A stretch of DNA of 64,000 bases. It comes from Parasitella parasitica NRRL 2501 (taxonomy: Eukaryota; Fungi; Mucoromycota). The DNA is taken from the NCBI GenBank assembly GCA_025201805.1, contig MU619278.1:161752-225751 (forward strand), in the 5' to 3' direction. The notes under the pieces are model-generated. The model saw only the letters and a program-made list of their open reading frames with translations, was not told where the DNA came from and did no database searches. The translations under genes and the position numbers were made by a program. Below, one piece after another: positions 13,322 through 50,744 of this stretch; the stretch's first letter is position 1; each line of letters starts with the position of its first letter.

Positions 13322-14480
<1,159 letters not shown>

Positions 14481-14554
14481 GTCACATTTGCAAGTCTATA
14501 GAAACAAAGTGGAAGCTTCAGAACCCCTTTAATGTCTTTTTATTTTTAACCAAT

Positions 14555-15548
14555 ATGTTACTTGATACTTTAAATCATAAAAAACTACTTAATGTACCGT
14601 GGGCTATCCGTAGAGTCGAAAATAAAACTTATTATGTCAAATACATGTTCGAAGAGAATGAATATGCAGTTCTAGTCACTGATTTACGTTTGGTTTGGTT
14701 TGAACATGGCGATTTTAAACGCATTCAACAGAATGGCAAAGTACAGAGCATCGATATAGAATCCGAAAAAGAAGCAATAGCAGTTTTGACTCGCTTAAAG
14801 CAGTTATTTATCGATAGCATCTCTCGCTGTAGCATTAAAAAAGAAGCCAGTAAAATCAGCCTACACTGTAAACCTAGCATGAGCCAAATCCAAAATAGAA
14901 TAAACACCCTTTCCTGGATATTTAAATGCGAGTTACTTGATCAAGAGAGTATCAGTGATGATGCATTGAGTGGACCGGAAGTTGTTTACGAACATTTTAT
15001 TCAACCTAGTCAAGCAATTGTTAATCATTTTACCGAAAACATGTCAGGTAACATTAACCATGTGGCAAATGATGCATTGGATTGGCTAAATTATGTGTTT
15101 TAAATGAATAGATGAAAATCAAATTAAATTAAAGATGGTAAGCATATGAAGCAATTATTGGTTTATTGCATTGATCAATAAATGATAGATGAAAGCATCA
15201 GCGTCTATGTACTCGACTACATCTTTATGTTATATATCTGAATTAATAAATGATGAAAGTAAGGAACCGGCAAAAAGAAGAATTTTGGTTATTTATTGAC
15301 CATGCATTCAGATACTGGAACCATTGCAACAGTTACACAGTCGCCCCAAGAGAAACTAGAACCTCCAAGTCCAAAAGAAGAGATACCCATGATAGTATGT
15401 AATTCACCAAATCTTTATTAAGTTTTATTAATTTTGAAAATAGACAGATGAAGAGCTGAAAGAAAGGAAAAGAAAAGAAACACAATTATTAGAGCAGGAG
15501 GAAAGAAAACGATTGATGGCCGCCAGTAAAAAAAGAAGAAAGCTTTAA
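14555..15548 (+). CDS. XLF/Cernunnos (NHEJ factor)-like protein, multi-exon
   Basis: N-terminal head PW..YYVKYMF..YAVLVTDLRLVWFE matches the recalled XLF pattern; LSWIFKC..HFIQP; last exon 15444-15548 ends KKRRKL, like a Ku-binding motif. Confidence 0.7.
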
Positions 15549-17818: not shown

Positions 17819-20800
17819 ATGGAAGACCAGTTCCCAGTAAACTCTGGGGATGTCGCACCTCCTTCTCAGGCAACAAACGTGCTTTCGCATCAACTCAACA
17901 CAAACAACTTTCAATTTAATACAAATGGCACGAGGAGGAAGCATAAGGAAGCCGTGCGCTCTGCTAGCAAAGTAAGGTAAATTTGGTCTAGTTGTGTGTT
18001 GTAAATACTAATCTTCTTTGCATTTATAGTTGAAACTGGAGCGTATTCTAGGGCTCACTTCAATATCATCCAATATCTTGGCGACAGCGAATGATCTCAT
18101 TGCTTATGCAGCAGGCGCTGTTGTTGTTGTTTACAACCACAAGCGAAACAAACAAGTGGCATTTTTGTATCCACCAGCTGTCATACAGCCAGCTGCATCA
18201 AACAACAATAGCGGCAATATAAACAGCAGCAACACGAACCAGCCATCAGCAATGCCTCTAATCACCCCTCTTGGAGGCGGAAACAGTAATAATGGTGAAA
18301 TATTAACCACTTCTCAGAATATCCCTATTGACGAAAATAAGTCTACGCCTGCTGGCAATCGTGCGAAACCCATCAGCTGCTTGGCATTATCACCTGATGG
18401 AAACTATTTAGCTGCTGGAGAGGTTAGGCGCAACAAAACAACCAAAGACTAGTCACTAACTGTTTTGCTGTTATAGATGGGGCATCAGCCTAGAATCTTC
18501 ATTTGGGATGTAAAGGAGAAAAAGCTGCTTCGAGAAATTAGATCGCACAAGTTTGGCGTTCTTTCATTGACATTTTCTCCGAATATGAGATACCTGGTTT
18601 CAGTTGGATTTCAGGTACATATTTTTGATATGATGTATATAGATGAATTAACTGGCAACCTCTTGTCAATTAGCACGACGGGTATCTGTATGTTTGGAAT
18701 TGGAAAAAGGGTACCAAGTTGGCTGGCAACAAAGTAACTAGTAGGGTAAATGCTGTATCATTTTCAAAAGATGGATCTTATTTTGTCACTGCTGGGCTGA
18801 GACATGTAAAATTCTGGTACTTGGATGCTCGAGGTCGCATTCCAAAAAGAGTGAGTAGATTGTATTAAAGGGTGCCTGCTAGCCACTGATTTGGGTGTAT
18901 ACGTACATCATAGGGGAACTTGTCGTCAAGAGAAACTCAGGTGCTGGATGGTAGATCAGGAATACTAGGTGTGCTACGAGATGCTAATTTTGTCAATGTT
19001 GCTTGTGACCAGAGTGGCAATACTGGTTACACCTACTTCATTACAGACACTGGCATTTTGTGCATCTTCAAGGAGGGAAGAGTCATTGATAAATGGGTTG
19101 ATCTTCAGGTAAACAAAAACAGTAGCACTTGATAGGTTTCATGTGTATAAACAATGCCCATTAGGTCAAAAATGCGTTCTCCATTGCAGTGTCGTCAAAT
19201 TATGTGATATGTACTTGCTCAGAAGGCGTCATTCGGTAGTGTACCTTTTTTTTATTAAAATGTAATGCACTCCTACTTTTTTCGCGTATGGCTAACATTT
19301 TTTTTTTTTTTGTATACAATAGCCTGTTTGAACCAGTTACACTGAAATATGCGGGGATATTGCCAAAACCTCATCCTTTAGGCACTGATATTAGTTTGGT
19401 GACTTCGCCTGAAATGGTTCGTCCTGCAGATGAGTCCACATCTTATCCCGATGCCATTGCTATGGTCTATGATGAGATTGCGCAGAGAGTAATATCAGTG
19501 TATTCGGACCGTAGTCTGTATGTTTGGGACATTAGGGACTTGACAAAGATTGGAAAGTACAGAAGTTTTATATTTCATAGTGATTGCGTGTGGGGCGTTG
19601 AGGTAAGTGTATTATAATACAGCGAAGAATCAGCATTTGTCAATCCTCTCCTTTTTTTTTTTTCTTTTTTTTTCTAGCCCTGTCCAACTGTTGAGCGTGT
19701 GGATAATGCAATCCCATTGAATTCGTTTGCCACTTTCTCGGCTGATGGTACAATTCGTATTTGGAATTTAGACAACCCCATTCACTCCTCCTCATCATCA
19801 CCATTATCACCACAGCAACAACTGAGCCGTGCAATGTCTCCCAGCAGTAGCACAGCTGTTGGCGCACATCGACGAAACATTTACTCGCGCGAACTTGTAA
19901 AGATGATATATGCTGATCCTGATGCTGCTGAGTTCTCAAAAGTCAAAGGGGACATGGACTTTGGGGAAGATCAATGCCCTGATTTTGGAATTCGATCTCT
20001 GAAAATGAGCGCTGATGGGCAAATAATGGCTAGCGGCGATCGCAATGGCAACATGAGGGTGCATGATATGAATTCTTGGAAGATGTTGACGTACCAAGAA
20101 GCCCACGACTCTGAAATTTTATCCATTGACCTAACGACTCCAAAAGACAAAGGTATGCATTTGTGGCTTTTATTACAAATTGTGGTATTCATCTTACCCT
20201 TGTTTGATTAGATGCACCAAGCTTGATTGCAACAGCGAGCAGAGATCGACTTCTCCATATTTTTGATGTCAAGTCTAATTTTCAGCTCGTCCAAAGTTTA
20301 GACGATCACTCATCATCCATTACTGCAGTTAAATTCTCTGAAGATTCGAACCGATTGATCAGCTGTGGCGCAGATAAAGGAATCATTTTTCGACATCGCA
20401 CTCATCCTGTCACTCCATTTCACGATGCAGTGCCTCGACCCTACTCCTCCTATCATAATTATTCGGGGAGAAGCACAGTATTTGATATGGCACTCGATTT
20501 GAATGACCGCTACATAGCAACGGTAACAGGAGAACGCAAACTGTATGTGCTGAGTGTCGAATCCGGTAAGCCTTTCCGTATTTGCAAACCAGAGACGTCA
20601 GACGAAACGGGGAAAGTGTCAGAAAACTCAGGTGGCAGCTTGATCAACATTGATTTGGATCCATTTTCTGGCACATATGCTGTGACAAGCGGCTCGGATC
20701 GATGCATTCGATTGTTTGATCTTACAAGCAGTAGTTGCATCGAGAAAGTGTCCGCTCACTCTGAAATGATCACCGCTGTCAAATTCATCCGAACCAATAC

Positions 20801-23021
20801 TGAAGAAGATGGTCTGCGAGTAGTGAGCACATGCTCAGATGGCACTGTGTTTGTATGGAAAGTCAGTCAAGAGATCATAGCAAAAATGTGTGCAAGAGCA
20901 ACCGAAAGAGATTCAAGAATGGGCCAAAAACTTAAAGTAGCAGTTGAAGAAGACAATGGCAATAGACGCACGAGAAAAGGATCCACGGCCGCAGCGGTGC
21001 GTCCTACAGCTAGTATATCACAAATGATACGCCAAGGAGAACGGAAAACTTTTTCCACAATGTCGCCTACAGAGCAAAAATACGATGATTTATACAAAAA
21101 GATTGCTATTTCGTCAGGGAGACGAAGCAATCGAGATAGCCAGGTAGCAGCTAATAATAATATACCCATCAATACCGTCAACACAAACAATAATATGCAT
21201 TTTCAACCACACCAACCACAAATTAATGACACAGCGACAGTTCCAACTGCCCATACTAATCGAATCAGCCATCCAAGTAATAACAGAGCCTTTTTTAGCC
21301 GCAGAGATAAAGATGCTAACAATGGTAGAAAGTCGCCACCTGATCGGATTGGAGGAAAATTAGATAGGCTCTACAACGGTCTCCCTACCAGTGGAAATAG
21401 CGGCAGAGACAAGGCATTGAATCAAGCTGCCTCACCAGCAGGCCTGGCTCAGTACCGTCAGCAGCAGACACCCCCCTCTCCGTCTAGAATGAACCAAGTG
21501 CTGCGAAGAGCCATGTCAAGAGACGCGCTGAAAAAAGACCAGGAAGCAAGGAAATCATTTACTGCATTCAGTCCACAAAAGCAGAATCAGGAACGTGAAA
21601 CACCTGTATCACCCGCCATACATAGAAGGAGCAGCCAGCCTGTGTTCTCGACTAATCATGCAGTAGCAAGCAAAAGACTTGGTGATCAACATTTGAACAT
21701 AGATACTGAAGCTTGTACATCTATCGCTGAAGGTAAGTCGTGGCGGCACACTGTGCACAGCTGTCACAAAGGTACTCATGCTTATATTAAAGATGGATCA
21801 GACAATGATGCTGATGATGTGGATGATTCAAATCGGGATCAGGACGAAAACGAGGAGGAGGACGAAGACGATTATGATGAAGAGGAAGAAGAGGAAGAGG
21901 AAGAGGAGATTATATTTACTCCTGAACAAGACAAAACCAGCAAGCCGTTTGAAGTTTCATTGCACCATGCACCCTCCGCCGATGATGATACTGGAGAAGA
22001 TGAAGAGGATGGCAGAACCACTCCTGTTTCAGATAATGAAACGCAAATCAAGGTAGACGAAGAGGATGATGGCTCAAGTGAAGACAATGTGGATGATGCA
22101 ATTAACCGCGATATTGTTGCCCGTGAACCGCCCCGTGTTTCAACCTCTTTAAGCCGAACTTCGAGTTCTGTGAAGGGTAATCGTCGTCGTAGTGCTTTAT
22201 TTGACACTTCTACTGGACGTACATCTTGTGACCTTATACCGCCTTCTTCACCTCCTGACGAGCAAGACAACACTGGTTCCATGAACGGAACCGCCACCTC
22301 TAATACTGCATTTAAGGAAATACAAAAAAAGCTCCAAAAAGCAGCCAAAAGACAGAGTATCACTGCTCGCTTCTTGTCTTCATTGACAAAGTCAGATGGA
22401 TCGCCAGCGTCGTCTTCACCCTCGAGGCCATCACTGGATCATATCATGAGCTCATTTCAAGATATGGCCAATAATGCTAAACCCGAAGTAATAGCGACAG
22501 CTCTTTCTCTTCCTCCTACCTCTTTAATGCGCACTAGTTGGACAGATCCACAATCATCAAAAATTCCAGTTGAAAAATTAACAATCGATGTTGCTCCTCC
22601 AATTCCATATATTGAAAACAAGGAGCCTCTGGTGGCTGTTGTTGCACAGGATGTTTCAATGAAAGAAGCGACCTTTAAATTAACTACACCCATAATACCA
22701 CCACGACAAGATGATTCCACCGTAGAAAATGCACTGGCCGATATAGATGGTGTTTCCACACTTCTGGATAGCGTATTAGAAGTGTATTCATCCAAATTGA
22801 AATCGCCAAATGGCTGCAGCGAAAAAGCGATTACTACTATAGAAGATAAACTGAATCAGGTCGCACACAGGATTTTGAAAGCTCTGCAGCAGAAAGGACC
22901 CAATCCGGCAATGAACCAAGTTTCCAATACGACCCCACTAACAACACCCGAAATAACGGACTTACTGGAAAAGTATTCTACCATGCTGCTCAGCATGGTC
23001 GAAAGCAAATTAAATAACTAG
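17819..23021 (+). CDS. WD40-repeat protein, WDR62/MAPKBP1 family, multi-exon
   Basis: Exon 1 17819-17971 joins [10 protein letters not shown]; [51 protein letters not shown] motifs; long disordered acidic tail; ends [17 protein letters not shown]. Confidence 0.88.
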
Positions 23022-23290: not shown

Positions 23291-23500
23291 ATGACTTTAA
23301 CAGATATTACCAACAACTATTTTACAGTTCGTAAACAACTTGGCAATTATGCCTGTGGGCTTATTATCGGCAGATATCAAGCTAAACAAAAGATCACTCA
23401 AATTTCACATGAAATGTGCTTACCAAAGTCAATTATTACTGATTGTGTCGATCGCCACAATAAAACAAGAAGTGTAGTAATCCAAAAACGTAGGGGGAGT
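23291..23500 (+). mobile_element. Tc1-like transposase N-terminal HTH fragment
   Basis: RKQL..GLIIGRYQ..ITQISHEMCLPKSIITDCVDRHNKT..KRRG fits the Tc1 HTH and GRP region; truncated. Confidence 0.6.
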
Positions 23501-24290
23501 TTTTACCTCTGAAGTTGTTTCACCAAGTCAGATGTTTTATACACATTACCTAATTTTAAAAAATTCAAATTGTCTGCCGTGTGTCGTTGTAGAAGTTCAG
23601 TACACTGGCAATATGTCCTTTTATCGTCCATTGATCGATTATGGTTTATCGGTAACGAAACGATATTCGGTATCTCCAGTTGTACTTGCCATTATCATTG
23701 CCAATACCACGACAGAATTGTCTGATCTTGCCGTCTACCTTGCCATGGTTGGGCAAAATCTTGCTACTTGCTTAATTCTTCATCGATTTCTGATCATTTG
23801 CAGTTCACTTCTCTTAATCCACTCGTCGCTCTGGAATATTTCCTTATCCAGCAAAAGCCATCACTACAATTTGTTGATCGAAATTGACGACAAAACGATC
23901 CAATTACTCTATACCATTGCGCAACAAATTTTTGTTGATGGATTGAAGCAAATTGAATCAATGATCATGGCAAAAGATCTGGACGAAATCCGCGATCAAT
24001 GTACACGGGCAAAATCGTATTTGCTTGAAGATGTTTTAGATGAAAGCTCAAAAAAACGTACTGTAGACTGTTTAGATAAAGTGTTAGTAAGGGTTGACGA
24101 GCCACGAAAGAAGCAAACAGGATATGTACTGTGAAATAATACCAATAATCTGGTAATCAAATATTGGCAATTGGTTGACAAGCACTATGAAGACCATGGC
24201 CCATTAAATTGGGAAACCATCTTTACGCTTGGTAAAGCAAAAGAGCTTTCTGGTAGTTATTCAAAATAGACCAGTGTCAAATCAGCATAA
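23500..24290 (+). pseudogene. Decayed PD-(D/E)XK-like nuclease gene (copy A)
   Basis: TKSDVLYTLP, frameshift, then LPCVVVEVQ..FYRPLIDY; C-terminal WETIFTLGK..YS*TSVKSA; several frameshifts and stops; homologous to 28340-29339. Confidence 0.6.
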
Positions 24291-28339: not shown

Positions 28340-29339
28340 ATTTTGAGTGTGGAAAAGGAATTGTATCTGTCGAAAAGATTTTTTTTTTCAATTCCCTTAG
28401 TAGCAGGAATCCTATTTCATCTTCCCTGGGGTTTTCTTTATATAAGCCTGTACGAATATAAGATCCTCTGATTCTGTAGTTGCAATTGCCAACTTTTCTT
28501 TCTCTATGCAACGTCGTTTAAAATGATCAGCAAAGCTGATGCCATTCTGTGCATATTTCATGATACGCTTTCTTTAGGCTTTGTCATCAGATTCATTGTT
28601 TTTGGACTCTCTTCTTCACTTGAGATGTGATTGCATTGCAGAAGGATTCTATCTGGGTGTCCTGAATGACGTTGTTATCAAACTTCTCATTGAATAGTTC
28701 GCTTGCTATATTATAAATCTTTTGTAAAGCAGGATCCATATATTCGTCTAAAAAAACAATATGCTTCTGTTGCTGTGTTGAGAAATGAATCAATGCAATC
28801 ATTTCTGGCATAGGTACTTCTGTTCGTGGCGCAATGGAATCAGCATTGTATATGTATACTTTTTTTGCCCAAAGTGAACTACGTAGTGAATAGTATGGTT
28901 CATTCTCTTGTTTGATAAAACCCTCCTCGCGAAAACGTTTGCTTGAAAACCCATTAATATTGACGATCACAAAAAGTGGAAGAGTCTTTTTGTTGCCAAA
29001 TATATTTAATGAATATCTCATCAAACGTGTTATAAACTCCTGAATAACCTTGTTCTGAATCTCCACTATGATAAATGGAAGATTCTTTTTGTTGTCTTTA
29101 GGATAGTATACTATATCAGATCGTGTGTTGTCATTGTGCTCTGTAGGTCCAATATAATACGCCAGAGTGCAAATACTATCACCCACAACTGAGCTGATTA
29201 GAATATCTTCTACTTTTTCTGTGCGAAACAATGCCTTGCTGCAAGAATCAGTTCCAGGTTTAACCGGTAAGGACAAATCGTATATGTTTTCAGCATGAAG
29301 GGCACTGTATGACGTATCGTCTTAAGTGGAAGTTGACAT
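28340..29339 (-). pseudogene. Decayed PD-(D/E)XK-like nuclease gene (copy B)
   Basis: ATG 29339 with early TAA; PGTDSCSKALF..PTEHNDNTRSDIVYYP..LPFIIVEIQNKV..FITRLMRY; 3' frameshifts and stops. Confidence 0.65.
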
Positions 29340-29545: not shown

Positions 29546-30875
29546 CCATATTTTATTTCGTCAGTTTCCAAACTTGATTTCGTCAAATTATGATTTTAAT
29601 AAATCTCGTTTTTTTCAGTGCACTGGGAAAAGGATTGCATGCTATGGTTGACCCATCCTTGGCAAATTTCAGCAGATACTTCTAAGTACTCTTCCTTATG
29701 TGTTCAACCAAAACATGAGTACCTCTCATAGCAGGATTTCTTCTGACTAAGGTTTTTAGCTTTGAGAAGCATTCCTCAATCGGATTGAGGAAGGGAGAGT
29801 ATGGAGGCAAAAGGCACATTTGGTGCTGAGAGTTCTTGAACAACTCTTTTACCATGAGTGCCTTGTGGATGCAGGCATTATCCATGACGAAATGGTATGA
29901 ACCAGCCCCAGTATCATCCAATTCCTTCATAATGCCTTGGATAAACTCCTTGAAGATCTCGCCAGTTGTGCCTCCTTGGACCTTCTTGACAGAGACATCT
30001 TCAACGCCATGATACGAAATGGCTGCAAGAATGGAGACGTTGACAGCCCTCTTGGATTGCGTGAACACAACGCTCTGGCTCGTTTTCTTAGAGTATCCAA
30101 TCCCACGAACCAAATTGGCATTAAAACCAGCTTCATCGACAAAGATACAATTGTGGTTGTATGCAATGCCTTTTGTCTACAACTTGTTAACATACTCGAT
30201 TGTGGCGGCTATGTTTCTTCGCTCTTCAACAGGTTTGACGCGAGTTAAAGTATAGCCAATGTGCTCTACAAGAAATCTCCATAGACCACTGTCTGCCAGA
30301 TCAGAAAAGCTGCTCATTAGCTTTTCTTTTAACACTTCAAGCGTTTGAATGCAATCCTCGTCAAGAGTTTTTTGTAAAAAGAGCCAATGATCTTCATTGA
30401 ACTTGGTAGTTTGCCCCTTTCTTCTTCCTCTTTTCAAGGGCTCACTACGACCTTCCTGCCTGTAAAGATTTACCTGGATACTACGGGTAGCGCGACTGAC
30501 ACCCAGTTCTCCAGCAGCCTGAGAAATTGTCTTATCGCCCATCGTATCACGATATTGGATAGCCAGGTCTCATAATTCTTGAGAGAGCTTTTTGTAAGCT
30601 CCTCTTAGACCCCTATGATGGTTTCTTGAGGGAAACTGTTGCTTATTGATGTTTTCCTTTGAAGTTCTGCGGGTAGTCACCATTTTGTAAGCTTTAAAGT
30701 TAATGTTGAAAGTAGAGAAAGAGAGAGATTAATCCTTAGAACAAATTCTTTTAAATAGAAACACTGGTAACACTTAAAAAGACACTTTGGAAAAAGCGCC
30801 ATCTCAATGACGAACTGCTCATCATTATTACATCTTGACGAAATCAAGTTTGGAAACTGACGAAATAAAATATGG
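29546..30875 (-). mobile_element. Near-complete Tc1/IS630 DD34E DNA transposon (about 1.35 kb) with inactivated transposase (29596-30683)
   Basis: Perfect 41-bp inverted repeats at 29546-29586 and 30835-30875; FVDEAGF, VMDNACIH and PPYSPFLNPIEE motifs with 34 residues between D2 and E; in-frame stops at 30570-30572 and 30177-30179; 3' frameshift. Confidence 0.92.
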
Positions 30876-44523: not shown

Positions 44524-46342
44524 ATGGAGCAGCAGAGTGAGATCCGCCGCAATGCTTACAAGGAGCGTGGGCGCTTTAATCAGGACGAAGTAAGACGCCG
44601 ACGTGAGAATGCCCAAGTTGAAATTAGAAAGCAAAAGAAGGAGGAAAATCTGGCCAAGAGAAGAAACTTTAACGCGCAAGAAATAGCACCGGATTCTGAT
44701 GATGAAGCTGATGTTGCCAATCAAAATGCTCAGGTAAGAGAGAGTGAGGGAAGAGGGAATTGTGTATGCGTGTGTGCGGTGTGCTATAGATAAGCCTGGA
44801 CTAGATGTTGATATGGACGTTTAGCTCATGCTTGCATTACCCGGTATGATTGAAAATCTGTATTCTATGGATCCCGCCATTCAATTGCAAGCAACTGCTC
44901 AATTTCGAAAGCTTTTGTCAAAGGAAAAGGACCCTCCCATCAGAGAGGTTATTCAATGTGGGGTTGTTTCTCGCTTTGTTGAATTTCTTCGATCTGAAGA
45001 CAGTCAAGTTCAAGTAAGGCTATTTCATTTTCAAGTTTTGTTAAGAAAGGGTTTAAAAAGGATTCGCAACATAGTTTGAAGCTGCCTGGGCCTTGACCAA
45101 TATTGCATCTGGTTCGTCTGATCAGACCAATACTGTAATCACAGCAGGTGCTGTTCCTTTATTTATCGACTTATTGTCCAGTCCAATTGTTGATGTCAGG
45201 GAACAGGTATGTATAGGGATATCATTATGGTGCTTTTTTAAAAAAAAGTTAATTGCTGTTTTTAGGCTGTTTGGGCTCTAGGTAATATTGCAGGTGATAG
45301 CTGCAGATGTCGAGATTATGTCTTGGAAACCGGCGCTCTGCCTCCTCTATTAGCTATATTCGAAGACAACTCCAAACTAACAATGATTCGCAACGCAACT
45401 TGGACCTTATCCAATTTTTGTAGAGGTAAACAACCCCAGCCAGCGTGGCCGTTGATTGCACCTGCATTGAATGTGTTGGCCAAGCTGATCAACTCTACCG
45501 ACGAAGAAGTCCTTATCGATACATGCTGGGCCATCTCTTATTTGTCTGATGGATCAAATCAGCGAATTCAAGCGGTGATCGATTCCGGTTTATGTATTCG
45601 TCTTGTGGAATTATTGGGACATCCAGCTTCTTCAGTTCAAACACCTGCACTGCGATCTGTTGGCAATATCGTGACAGGAGACGATAACCAGACACAGATG
45701 ATCATCAATTGTGGAGTACTAGAGGCTCTATATCATTTATTGAATAGTTCCAAAGAAACAATCAAGAAAGAGACCTGTTGGACATTATCCAACATTACAG
45801 CCGGCAACACGGATCAAATTCAAGCCGTTATTGACGCAGGATTGATCGAGCGCTTAGTTTTAGTATTAAAAAATGGGGATATAAAATCAAAGAAAGAAGC
45901 GTGTTGGGCTATCTGCAACGCAACATCAGGCGGACTAAATAGGCCCGAACAAATCAAGCATTTAGTTGACAAGGGATGCATTAAACCACTCTGCGATATG
46001 TTGCAGGCATTGGATAACAAGATTACTTTGGTGGCATTAGACGGCTTGGACAATATTTTGAAGGTTGGCGATATGGTGAAAATGGACAGTGAGGTGAATC
46101 CTTACTCTCTGTTGATCGAAGACTGCGGTGGGCTCGACTACATTAACTCTTTGCAGGAGCACAGCAATCATGATATTTACAAGAAGTCATACCAGCTGAT
46201 TGACAAGTTCTTTAATGAGGAAGAGCAAGTGTCCAATGCTATATACGGGTCTTTGGCGGAACAGGATGCTGAAATGGAGCCTGATGCTGATATGAACCAA
46301 TTTGTGTTTCACCAAAATGATGTAGGTGGTTTTAATTTTTAG
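44524..46342 (+). CDS. SRP1: Importin alpha (karyopherin alpha)
   Basis: IBB domain [25 protein letters not shown]; ARM repeats [35 protein letters not shown]. Confidence 0.97.
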
Positions 46343-46412: not shown

Positions 46413-48060
46413 ATGTCTTTATTGTTAACAAAGACATGTGAATATGCTCTGCTTATAACGATACAGCAAGGTTTTTTTTTTGTTTATTTTTTTATTTCAT
46501 TGCAACCACAATACATACGGGTTATTCATTTTCTATTTTATATTTCCCTGAATAGGAAGATGTTTTGCAAAAAATGCAACAATAAGAGTGGAAACTGAAT
46601 TAGACCTTAAATTGCCAGCCTCAATCAGTGATCTAATACCAAACAAGACCATTATATCAACGCCTACGACAATGTCTGATTCAACTGGAAGCTGCGCATT
46701 CAATCTATCGCTCGTCTACTATGTGTCATGGAAGCAGCTGCAGAGATTAAGAAAACTAGATGCAACCACCACCTTGCATGTGCACGAAAACGATACATTG
46801 TTCGATCTTGTGTTTACAATGTCTGAAGCGAAAGAAGTAGTGCATCAGTCAGGACACAAGCTGGACCAGATTTACAAATTTGTATCGGATAAGGGCGCGT
46901 GGCGTTCGATACAGAGCGCAACAGAGAATCAGCAGTTAAAGGCTGGGTTATTTTATGTGCAAATGCCAGATACCAACAATGCAATTTCAGCGAATACGCC
47001 GTCTATACAATTAAGATCTCCACCTCCTACTCCTAGTATACCAAAAAGAGTTACTAGCATGAGCAACAGCAGAAGAAAAAAAGTGCTATCGATACTGGGC
47101 TCATCTGTTAGCAGCACAAAATCATCAGACAGGAAAATTTTAGACAAGAAAATAACAGAAAAGAAACTGCCAGAAAAGAAATTAGCACCATCCCTTCCAG
47201 AAAAACCGCCCTTAAGAAGGACAAAATCGTCTCTTGCAGATATGAATATTGAAGAAATATCCAATGTTCTTCAAAATATGAGCATATTCACTGCTCCAAT
47301 CACCCCGCCAATACCGCCTGAACATGCGTCCTATCATCAAATCGGTAAAGGATCATCGCAGTATACATTTTATTTTAAAGTCATGTATGTAGATCATATC
47401 CTGTTGCAGCAACAACAAACGAAAAAGCAATACAAAAAACCCTTCATCACCTACAAGTTCCTAACAAACTACACACTACTGCCAGCTGCCTCATTTTCAT
47501 CGTCCAGATCTAGCCAACAGGCGGTAAAAGCGTCGTATCAATTGAGAGGACATTTAGTAGATATACAGCGCTGGCTGGATGGACACGAGTCAATTTGCTT
47601 GAATTACATGTGGATGGATAAATTCACAAAAGAAACTGTGGGCCAGGTTAAGGTACCATTGGAAGGCATTGCGTTTGATGGTAGAGGCGTGTCGGATAAA
47701 GTGTGTCATGTGGAAAAGCCTTATTGCGAAACCGACGACAACATCATAGCCAGTGTCACTGTACGCATTGGATTAGTGAGCGGCTGGCACAGCGACGACT
47801 ATTTTGACCAGCAACAAGAACAAGCTAGCAAAAGAGCCTCATCCTCGTCGACTTGGGATGCAGTGATGATGACCAGCAATAAAAAATTTAGACATCATTC
47901 GCAATCATCCATTCCTACATTATCAACCACCACATGTTCAACCAAGTCATCCACTGTACCATCAATCCATTATATTCAACAATCAAGACCCACATCTCTA
48001 AATAGTACCAAATCCAAGTCCTTTTCGTTAAAAAAGGATCAGTTTAACAATAAAGCTTAA
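46413..48060 (+). CDS. CEP120-like tandem C2-domain (DUF3668-type) protein; intron 46471-46555
   Basis: Exon 1 joins in frame (YALLITIQQGRCF); second domain YHQIG..FITYKFLTN..KASYQLRG..VGQVKVPLEGI parallels the recalled CEP120 C2B sequence. Confidence 0.65.
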
Positions 48061-48201: not shown

Positions 48202-49497
48202 CTATGACTGCTGGTCGTACTCGTATTGCTTCCATGTCGATGATGGTGTATAACTATTGGTCGATCGCAATATATCTTCTGCTTGTGAAACAATGTCTTC
48301 TAGCGAGGTAGTTAATCGGGATAAAATTTGACATTGCTCAAGCGGCACTCTACGTCTCAGTCTTTCTAATCGTGTCATTGCGTTATCAAACTCATTCAAG
48401 TCGCTGTAGGGATTATTCATTGTCGCTGCTGATTTGCCTGTGGGTCCTACAGCTGTAATTGGGGGTAAATTGATTAGTTTTTGATTTATAGGGTCTGATG
48501 TTGGCGATGGCTGCGAGATTAATGGTTGGGGCGACGATAAAGATCTATAGTCGGACAGTGGATCAAATCGATTGAGAGGCAACGAGCGACTTGCATCAGA
48601 AATCGATGATAGGTTCCTAGTTGATGCCGTTGAAAACAGAGTAGGTGGAGTTCTTGGAGGAGGAGGTAATCTAGGCTGTGGCGGTAGAGAAGAAGGTTTC
48701 AAATTCTGTACTGGTGCTCGATAGGGCGCTCTTTTGGGCACTATGTAGTCTTCTATTGGAGGTACAGCAACATTGCTGTTAGACTCGCGTCTTTTGTTGG
48801 GCACTGTGTTGTTCACAACCCTTCTCTTCTTCTTTCCTTTTTTTTCCGCTGCCTGCTTGACCTTTTCCTCATCGTCACTATCCAAATGGTCCCCCTCTGA
48901 GGAAGACTCCAATTCATCTTGTTCATTTCCTTCTTCATGGGGATCATCCTCGTCGTTGACAATAATTCGTTTACGGCGTTTAATCACACTGCGTTTCATA
49001 CTGACAGGTCGATGCACATTATGCAATTTGTAATACAGACCGCAAGCATTACAGATTGTGTTTCCTTCTTCATCTCTTCTCCAGAGTGGGGTAGTTGTGG
49101 TGCGGCAGTTAGCACAGATCAGGGCATGTCTATTTACTTGGTGTTGATTAAATGCAGGACAGCCTTCGCATGAAGGAGAACCTCCAGTACCATTACATTG
49201 ACCACCGCCTGGACAAGTGCCAGCAAGTGCGTCGGCAGCGTTGATCGTATTGTGTGTCATAGTTTCTTGTAGTTGTTCTTGTTTACTCTTGAAATTGCGC
49301 TTCATAGAGGGTGGTCGAAGTGTATTTCTAGCTTTTAGATAAAGTCCACAAGCATTGCAAATGGTCTCTCCGTTAGGTGCTCTTCTCCATAGAGGCGTGG
49401 TTGTCGTGCCACAATTTGAACACACTGTTGCGGAAACTTGTTGAGATTCCTTCTTCTTTTGCTTGGTATCTTGTAAAGGGTTCTCAGGTATAGCCAT
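48202..49497 (-). CDS. sreA: Iron-responsive GATA transcription factor (SreA/Urbs1/Fep1 type)
   Basis: Two CX2CX17CX2C GATA fingers separated by the Cys-rich [22 protein letters not shown] segment; C-terminal coiled coil. Confidence 0.92.
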
Positions 49498-50744
49498 TAG
49501 CTTTAATTTATTAAAAAGCTGATATAAAATTTGGAAGAAGGGGTGAGAAAAGAAGGAAAATTGGGTTATATGGAAAATAGAACCAAAATTTTTTGAACGA
49601 AATGTGATTGTATAAAATGTAATATTAATCTATTTCAACTGAGCTGAATGTTTGGATTCCATTACTTGTCGCCTTGATTCAATCTTTTCTCGAAGGTTTC
49701 AACTGGCGTATTATATTCAGTCTTGCTGCCTTATACCATAATCGTTTTTGATAGTGCATCTCATTGTTTTTTTGCACATTATATTATATATTATCATCAA
49801 GACGAAATATTCATTTTTTTATATATGTATATTATATGGTGGTACAAGAATATTCAAATTTCGGGTAAACGAATCATTTCCACCAAACAAAATTCCTTCT
49901 GAAATAGCTTGTATGAAGCTACATTTTACACAATAATCTCTCAGCGTTCGGGGAGACAAGGAGAATCCAAAATATTAAATCATGCAACTGGCGGTCAAAT
50001 GTTCAGAGTTTGAAACCCTCTTCGGTCGACAAATGCTTGTAGATATGTTTCATTTATATACAACATTGGACGAGATTTGTACGATTACCAAAAGAAAAGT
50101 GTCTTACAAGCGTGGTTTCAAGAATTATGCATTGCTGATGCGTAAGAAGAAGGTTATTAAATAAAATACACTTATGATCATATTACTACTACAAGCGATT
50201 TATCAGAATGAAATGCCCATTGGCATTGATGTCAACATGTCCCCAAATGGATCCAACTTGAAATTCAGAAGTTACAAACACAGAAAAATTTCATGAAACG
50301 CATTTATCCAAGCGCTTGATTCAGTAAGTTTACTAGCAAAGTGCCTTCTTAATTGCACATTTTTTAATAACGGGTAAAGCGCAATATGGATTCTGGAGAG
50401 CTGATATGAAAGTGGGCAGCTAGAATTCGGGAAATACTCTTACAACATCCTTCAACCAAGATATTGCGATGACTTTTGCCTTTTTTTTTTTTTTTTTTTT
50501 TTTAGTGTTCTAAAAGGTAAATGCACTTTTCTTACCATCACTAGGACTCACTTTTAGAAAGTCGATGTGAAGATCGTGCTTGTGATTCTCTAACCTTGTG
50601 CCTGTTTCAAAGCAAAGACTACAAATGCGGCAATGAAAATGATGTGTACGCCATGGCGGATCGAAAAGCACCTCAAGCGATTAGGTACTTTAGGGAAAGT
50701 TGCATTGGGATAGTTTATTACAACATTGGAATTCAAGCATCTAT

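Follow-up and report, generated by a model that had tools for sequence, protein, structure and literature searches.

Can a fungus without centrioles keep a relative of the centriolar protein CEP120 and, if so, what would such a protein do there? This question is raised by a spliced gene at positions 46413–48060 of a 64,000-nucleotide stretch (here called the window) of contig MU619278.1 of Parasitella parasitica NRRL 2501. The original prediction, made from the DNA letters alone, had described the product as a CEP120-like protein with two C2 domains in a presumably non-flagellated host, and the host is indeed a member of the Mucorales, P. parasitica (Mucoraceae). Judging by family profiles and structure models, the 520-residue product is almost certainly a divergent CEP120 homologue. 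We further propose, with a probability of roughly 0.4, that this shortened CEP120 relative shuttles through the nucleus and serves as an adaptor in closed mitosis, on the spindle or on its pole.

The reading frame opens with an ATG at 46413 and closes with a stop codon at 48060 on the forward strand. Exon 1 (46413–46470) encodes residues 1–19 and the first base of Gly20, a phase-1 GT..AG intron of 85 nucleotides occupies 46471–46555, exactly where it had been predicted, and exon 2 (46556–48060) runs through the stop codon. Translation of the joined exons was letter for letter identical to the 520-residue NCBI protein of P. parasitica (P0002). In a single public sequencing run (X1), whose nature as RNA is the tool's guess, a contig joined 46430–46467 to 46554–48015 with one base in between, as expected for a skip of 85 nucleotides, and depth was zero at 46478–46531, inside the intron. 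In the importin-alpha gene next door, too, three GT..AG introns are skipped in this run. Since the joint between exons 1 and 2 falls at a repeat, it is missing from the tool's table of joints. The gene is likely transcribed and spliced, as seen in this one run, itself likely RNA.

An AlphaFold model built from 34 sequences (mean predicted local distance difference test score, pLDDT, 68.9) comprised two confident beta-sandwiches, in agreement with the two beta-rich domains and linker read from the sequence, a mostly disordered linker of low confidence and a disordered tail. Domain 1 spans residues 9–156 (46437–46965, forward strand, across the intron) and carries a family-specific insertion of about 13 residues. 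Domain 2 covers residues 277–431 (47326–47790, forward strand), and its predicted YHQIG start at 47332 was borne out. Between low-confidence stretches of the linker, the model places a single helix at residues 251–260. It contains no third C2 domain in the C-terminal tail, 83 residues of low confidence, and this tail showed no heptad pattern of a coiled coil (score 0.28); both absences had been foreseen. Comparison of the domain 1 and domain 2 profiles detected no similarity (probability 0.25%), so the two domains are not a recent internal repeat.

At the level of the single sequence the claimed resemblance to CEP120 failed, the query alone matching nothing in Pfam or the PDB by sequence; with family profiles and folds it stood. 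A domain-1 profile of 12 relatives ranked the C2A domain of human CEP120 first (E 0.023). With 22 sequences, human C2A (4icw) was matched at E 1.2e-7 and zebrafish C2A at 1.4e-5, followed by the next C2 domain at 1.1. Among C2 domains, the 23-sequence profile of domain 2 matched solely C2B of tilapia CEP120 (E 0.0065), and neither a full-length profile of close relatives (A1) nor a narrow domain-2 profile (A2) matched a C2 domain in the PDB. Among 48,161 chains compared by VIA, C2A was the best match of domain 1 (Z 14.3, an rmsd, or root-mean-square deviation, of 2.0, 118 aligned residues; next match Z 11.9). For the fold searches domain 2 was remodelled separately (pLDDT 85): the top four rows of Foldseek were all C2B, with template modelling (TM) scores of 0.67–0.69, and the C2 domain of RPGRIP1L came fifth, while VIA gave C2B at Z 12.0 (rmsd 3.2, 146 aligned residues) in a tie with C2C (Z 11.7), and RPGRIP1L at Z 9.8. 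Thus, the two domains pick two CEP120 domains, in the predicted order of C2A then C2B, by profile as well as by fold, which makes CEP120 ancestry very likely.

Two further results do not favour this ancestry. DUF3668 (PF12416), the Pfam family by which the original prediction expected CEP120 to be recognized, did not match the query, and no family member reached its gathering score of 26 bits (best 21.1 bits); the matches that did appear on domain 2, weak and below the cut-off, count for CEP120: they came up in 2 of 34, in 5 of 30 and in 5 of 16 proteins of the family, at a best E of 3.6e-4. Moreover, our family searches recovered no chytrid, Mortierella or animal CEP120.

Compared with the known structures of human, zebrafish, tilapia and mouse CEP120 (4icw, 6flj, 6ewl, 6ewg–6ewi, 6ewp), the fungal protein has the same succession of a C2A-like and a C2B-like domain, each matched separately, common motifs where either domain begins, and C2A's basic helix. 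It differs in lacking both C2C and the coiled coil through which CEP120 also dimerises, in its low identity (13–18%), in the domain-1 insertion of 13 residues, in a Thr at the position of human K76, in its export- and import-like motifs, in the two paralogues of its family, and in a host without centrioles. Its linker measures 118 residues, whereas that of CEP120 is short according to the accessible text of PMC5990496. The same text states three C2 domains for most metazoan CEP120s, and C2C, taken as a class criterion, may not define fungal ones. The long C-terminal coiled coil of CEP120 serves centriole targeting.

The relatives for which an organism was listed came from Mucoromycotina. A first search gave 35 proteins, and the 22 with a named organism were all from Mucorales. 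Searching 1.84 billion representatives exhaustively with domain 2 yielded 46 matches; 20 were looked up, and the 14 with an organism all belonged to Mucorales, Umbelopsis or Jimgerdemannia. Profile A4, searched via a word index, gave 17 matches, from Mucoromycotina only. A search for longer proteins found none, covering 2056–5000 residues only and being uninformative on full-length CEP120; P0069 (2719 residues, seven short matches) was left aside as likely spurious. In a FastTree tree of 66 proteins and 332 columns, from which redundant cluster members and one-domain fragments were left out and whose root was placed by choice on Jimgerdemannia, group A, which includes the query (support 0.905), was split from a short group B (0.953). 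Members of both groups occur in Gilbertella, in two Phycomyces and in Radiomyces; Umbelopsis PMI_123 carries two copies. The family is duplicated in Mucoromycotina. Neither this duplication nor the export- and import-like motifs described below had been noted in the original prediction. Absidia, Cunninghamella, Hesseltinella, Gongronella, Halteromyces and Chlamydoabsidia appear only in the short group B of the tree. A protein labelled Rhizopus stolonifer is nearly identical to the short paralogue of Gilbertella persicaria (P0057/P0073), and its assembly is possibly mislabelled.

Tails of Jimgerdemannia and long Umbelopsis proteins measure 290–530 residues and end in a common helix with a heptad pattern; those of group A mostly measure 50–135 residues, and group B mostly stops at C2B. 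The C-terminal helix (about 50 residues, heptad score 0.6; P0071, P0075, P0114, P0044) had no Pfam match in whole-protein scans and is possibly a remnant of the CEP120 coiled coil. Trimming would then have been stepwise, with a short C-terminal helix surviving in Umbelopsis and Jimgerdemannia and lost in Mucorales. We infer that the family was inherited vertically from the centriolar CEP120 that flagellated fungi possess.

Linker and tail carry short motifs, which we counted among 71 two-domain proteins. Residues 251–263 (47248–47286, forward strand), which include the modelled helix, resemble a nuclear export signal (NES) with five hydrophobic residues in the CRM1 class 1a spacing: Phi-x3-Phi-x2-Phi-x-Phi plus a fifth hydrophobic upstream, acidic residues near the start and disordered surroundings. 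According to the accessible text of PMC3442415, class 1a is the commonest spacing of real NESs, which are acidic and flanked by disorder. The five-hydrophobic pattern occupies a single homologous position of the linker. It is present in 35 of 37 proteins of group A and in 4 of the 5 long ones of Umbelopsis, and absent from all 25 group B, three short Umbelopsis-type and one Jimgerdemannia proteins; shuffled linkers match it in 0–14%. The group A proteins that miss it, P0030 and P0040, have linkers shorter than those of close relatives, which may be gaps in their gene models. The spacing from the helix to the following PhiXPhi is unchanged from Umbelopsis to Mucor. Among 21 members chosen for matching, seven of the eight positions between the hydrophobics are never L, I, V, M or F, and 95% have an extra hydrophobic residue before the pattern, often with one after it too. 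A stricter pattern had 0 matches in 15 other open reading frames (ORFs) of the window, but as it was built on the family's own sequences we give it no evidential weight.

Classical nuclear localization signals (NLSs) read K-K/R-x-K/R, with an upstream KR in the bipartite form and a usual spacer of 10–12 residues. An NLS-like motif composed of KR, a spacer with a conserved Trp and KKxR lies in the tail at residues 445–465 (47830–47892, forward strand). K-K/R-x-K/R follows C2B in 35 of the 36 group A tails of at least 40 residues and in all three Umbelopsis tails; a loose bipartite pattern is found in 20 of these 36 and again in 3/3, the spacer of the query measuring 15. Just before the export-like helix, an RRxxS-type basic Ser site (47212–47232, forward strand), a predicted phosphorylation site, occurs in 30 of 37 group A linkers versus 4 of 25 in group B. 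A basic-hydrophobic motif at residues 192–201 (47071–47100, forward strand) is conserved in Mucoraceae-side members (alignment A1).

Human CEP120 binds microtubules through its N-terminus, an interaction that K76A impairs, and is targeted to centrioles by residues 731–894 (accessible part of PMC3718976). By alignment to 4icw and to the K76A chain 6flj, the position of K76 is occupied by Thr92 (46771–46773, forward strand) in the Parasitella protein. All nine basal proteins (Umbelopsis-type and Jimgerdemannia) have Lys or Arg there. The helix before this position stays basic, with a net charge of +2 to +5 in 32 of 34 scored group A members.

Spindles of Mucorales are intranuclear (closed mitosis), a point on which the literature searched contained no Mucorales-specific paper. 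In the mechanism we propose, the lost centriole address would have been replaced by new motifs and the binding modules kept. The tail motif would bind importin-alpha and bring about nuclear import, the linker helix would bind CRM1 for export, and phosphorylation of the RRxxS site might switch the shuttling. C2A may still touch tubulin through its basic helix and C2B may bind partner proteins, the C2 pair thereby being delivered to the spindle of the closed mitosis. The C2B domain of CEP120 itself has no Ca2+ site and is described as a module that likely binds proteins (accessible text of PMC5990496). Shuttling between nucleus and cytoplasm through the predicted export helix and the predicted import signal is the part we slightly favour, and a spindle or microtubule role is put forward tentatively. 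A fuller version appears doubtful: that the centriole address was swapped for import and export signals and kinase-controlled nuclear cycling organises the intranuclear spindle or its pole, with Mortierella, Endogonales, Umbelopsis and Mucorales as successive stages and the protein as the first molecular marker of the mucoralean spindle pole.

Several points speak against the proposed mechanism. The proteins counted are related, and the motif counts are thus not independent. Consensus matching of NESs reaches a precision of 4–6% (accessible text of PMC3442415), and the export pattern was found 25 times in 6,590 residues of the 15 other window ORFs. Of the 36 group A tails, 16 lack the bipartite pattern. 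Neither the export-like nor the import-like motif occurs in group B, from which it follows that shuttling is not required for the core role of the family. Finally, Thr92 is no basic residue, and Lys or Arg stands at this position in only 2 of 34 group A proteins and 2 of the 19 group B proteins with a residue there; this loss in most Mucorales members weakens the original prediction's reading of a protein repurposed at the spindle pole body or on microtubules.

The last point leads to a rather unlikely alternative, in which the protein shuttles through the nucleus without microtubule contact and the C2 pair is a platform that binds proteins for some other task, nuclear or in signalling. The K76 position is lost in most Mucorales members while export- and import-like motifs are kept, as this alternative would have it, and the C2 domains of CEP120 are regarded as modules for protein interaction (accessible text of PMC5990496); however, the basic helix beside the K76 position is retained, and basal members combine Arg at this position with both motifs. 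Unlikely, in our view, is a cytoplasmic protein that sits on the microtubules of hyphae or at the spindle pole body, whose linker helix docks or dimerises in place of the coiled coil and whose tail binds microtubules, not importin. Amphipathic helices often imitate NES patterns (accessible text of PMC4596688), as the matches elsewhere in the window illustrate, and the extra hydrophobic residues flanking the pattern suggest a longer interface, but such a helix would have to account for the constant export spacing from Umbelopsis to Mucor and for the in-between positions that are never hydrophobic in the members chosen for matching. We consider it improbable that the C2 pair turned to membrane lipids as in conventional C2 proteins: the multi-C2 ferlins and extended synaptotagmin that head a whole-model Foldseek search by E-value match at an rmsd of 14–24 Å, single-domain searches put CEP120 first, and CEP120 C2 domains have neither Ca2+ sites nor membrane enrichment (accessible text of PMC5990496), even though the basic helix in domain 1 would suit a lipid-binding role.

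It is very improbable that the protein derives not from CEP120 but from a different family of ciliary C2 proteins, C2CD3 or RPGRIP1L, or from a mixture. Pfam C2_C2CD3_N matched 8 of 34 close relatives below the cut-off (best E 1.5e-4), beating DUF3668 and telling against CEP120, and 1 of 30 family proteins in another set; these matches are partial, covering the second half of the domain only, whereas those of DUF3668 begin near the start of the model. Feature searches of the Atlas gave general C2-type clusters (DUF1005, RPGR1_C, C2-C2_1) and no CEP120 cluster among the matches listed. The fold comparison covers RPGRIP1L, which ranked below CEP120 C2B, and C2CD3, with no structure listed, was compared by Pfam matches. 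The similarities of both families are weak and concern domain 2; domain 1 is unmatched at the level of CEP120, and two independent domains each rank a different CEP120 domain first. Finally, we give hardly any credence to a working product made by read-through splicing of the upstream importin-alpha gene (44524–46342, forward strand; Pfam Arm, splice joints in run X1) into exon 2. The importin stop lies 70 nucleotides before the ATG of the CEP120-like gene, phase-1 GT sites occur in the last importin codons, and the importin contig stops at 46329. The genes are also adjacent in Mucor, their accessions being neighbours in both M. circinelloides and M. mucedo, and three Mucor annotations join them in frame, which are likely annotation artefacts. 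Elsewhere in the same genera the two are annotated as separate genes. Against a fusion, too, the exon 2 contig comes from exon 1, no fusion joint is listed in run X1 and exon 1 is strongly conserved.

That CEP120 is retained in the absence of flagella is already implied by published data. Chytrids possess CEP120 (accessible part of PMC12659703), and in the accessible part of a 2026 supplement (PMC13358043) a CEP120 orthogroup comprises 79 proteins among 184 fungal proteomes and is not restricted to flagellated fungi. Like our family, that orthogroup includes fungi without flagella; unlike it, 69 of its 79 proteins carry a DUF3668 call, the Mucoromycotina family lying below the cut-off. We take the accessions in 21 cells of the CEP120 column, in the part of the supplement available, to be those of Mortierellaceae, one glomeromycete and chytrids. 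None of 12 accessions of our family occurs in the accessible file of PMC13358043, though eight are from species or strains of its assembly list, and its main text never names CEP120. The readable supplements of PMC8371127 gave no match. A precedent for a ciliary protein kept without centrioles is Bug22/CFAP20 in acentric Mortierella (accessible part of PMC4242763), an unrelated protein in conserved form, neither trimmed nor duplicated. The literature searched, with most subscription journals outside its reach, contained nothing on CEP120 in Mucor, and a Mortierella match was unrelated to CEP120 retention. A trimmed and duplicated Mucoromycotina family with export- and import-like motifs was likewise not found there.

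Further genes were noted in the window. A WDR62/MAPKBP1-like WD40 gene (about 18030–23021, forward strand; Pfam PF24780, PF24782; WD40_MABP1-WDR62 E 4e-53) had been mentioned alongside the spindle-pole reading; the gene is real, and we rejected it as support, since it lies about 23 kb upstream and no link was shown. Convergent with the CEP120-like gene, a GATA factor is encoded at 48202–49629 on the reverse strand; it has two zinc fingers as well as a Cys-rich spacer and resembles the siderophore-repressing SreA/Urbs1 factors. An XLF/Nej1-like N-terminal domain is encoded at 14474–15103 (forward strand, E 2.9e-16), and ORFs at 23481–24134, 28593–29321 and 29682–30569 resemble, by reading only, transposon remnants (DDE-type, nuclease-like).

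These results bear on the replacement of the centriole by the spindle pole body in land fungi; yeast spindle pole bodies have few parts in common with centrosomes (accessible part of PMC12659703). The family is a trimmed and duplicated intermediate across Mucoromycotina, and M. lusitanicus, a host that can be transformed, offers a named gene of it (KAF1799874). If the proposed mechanism holds, leptomycin B would trap the protein in the nucleus, mutation of the basic tail would exclude it, and tubulin binding would differ between Umbelopsis (Arg) and Mucor (Thr). More generally, orthogroup surveys can miss centriolar relics that lie below Pfam cut-offs.
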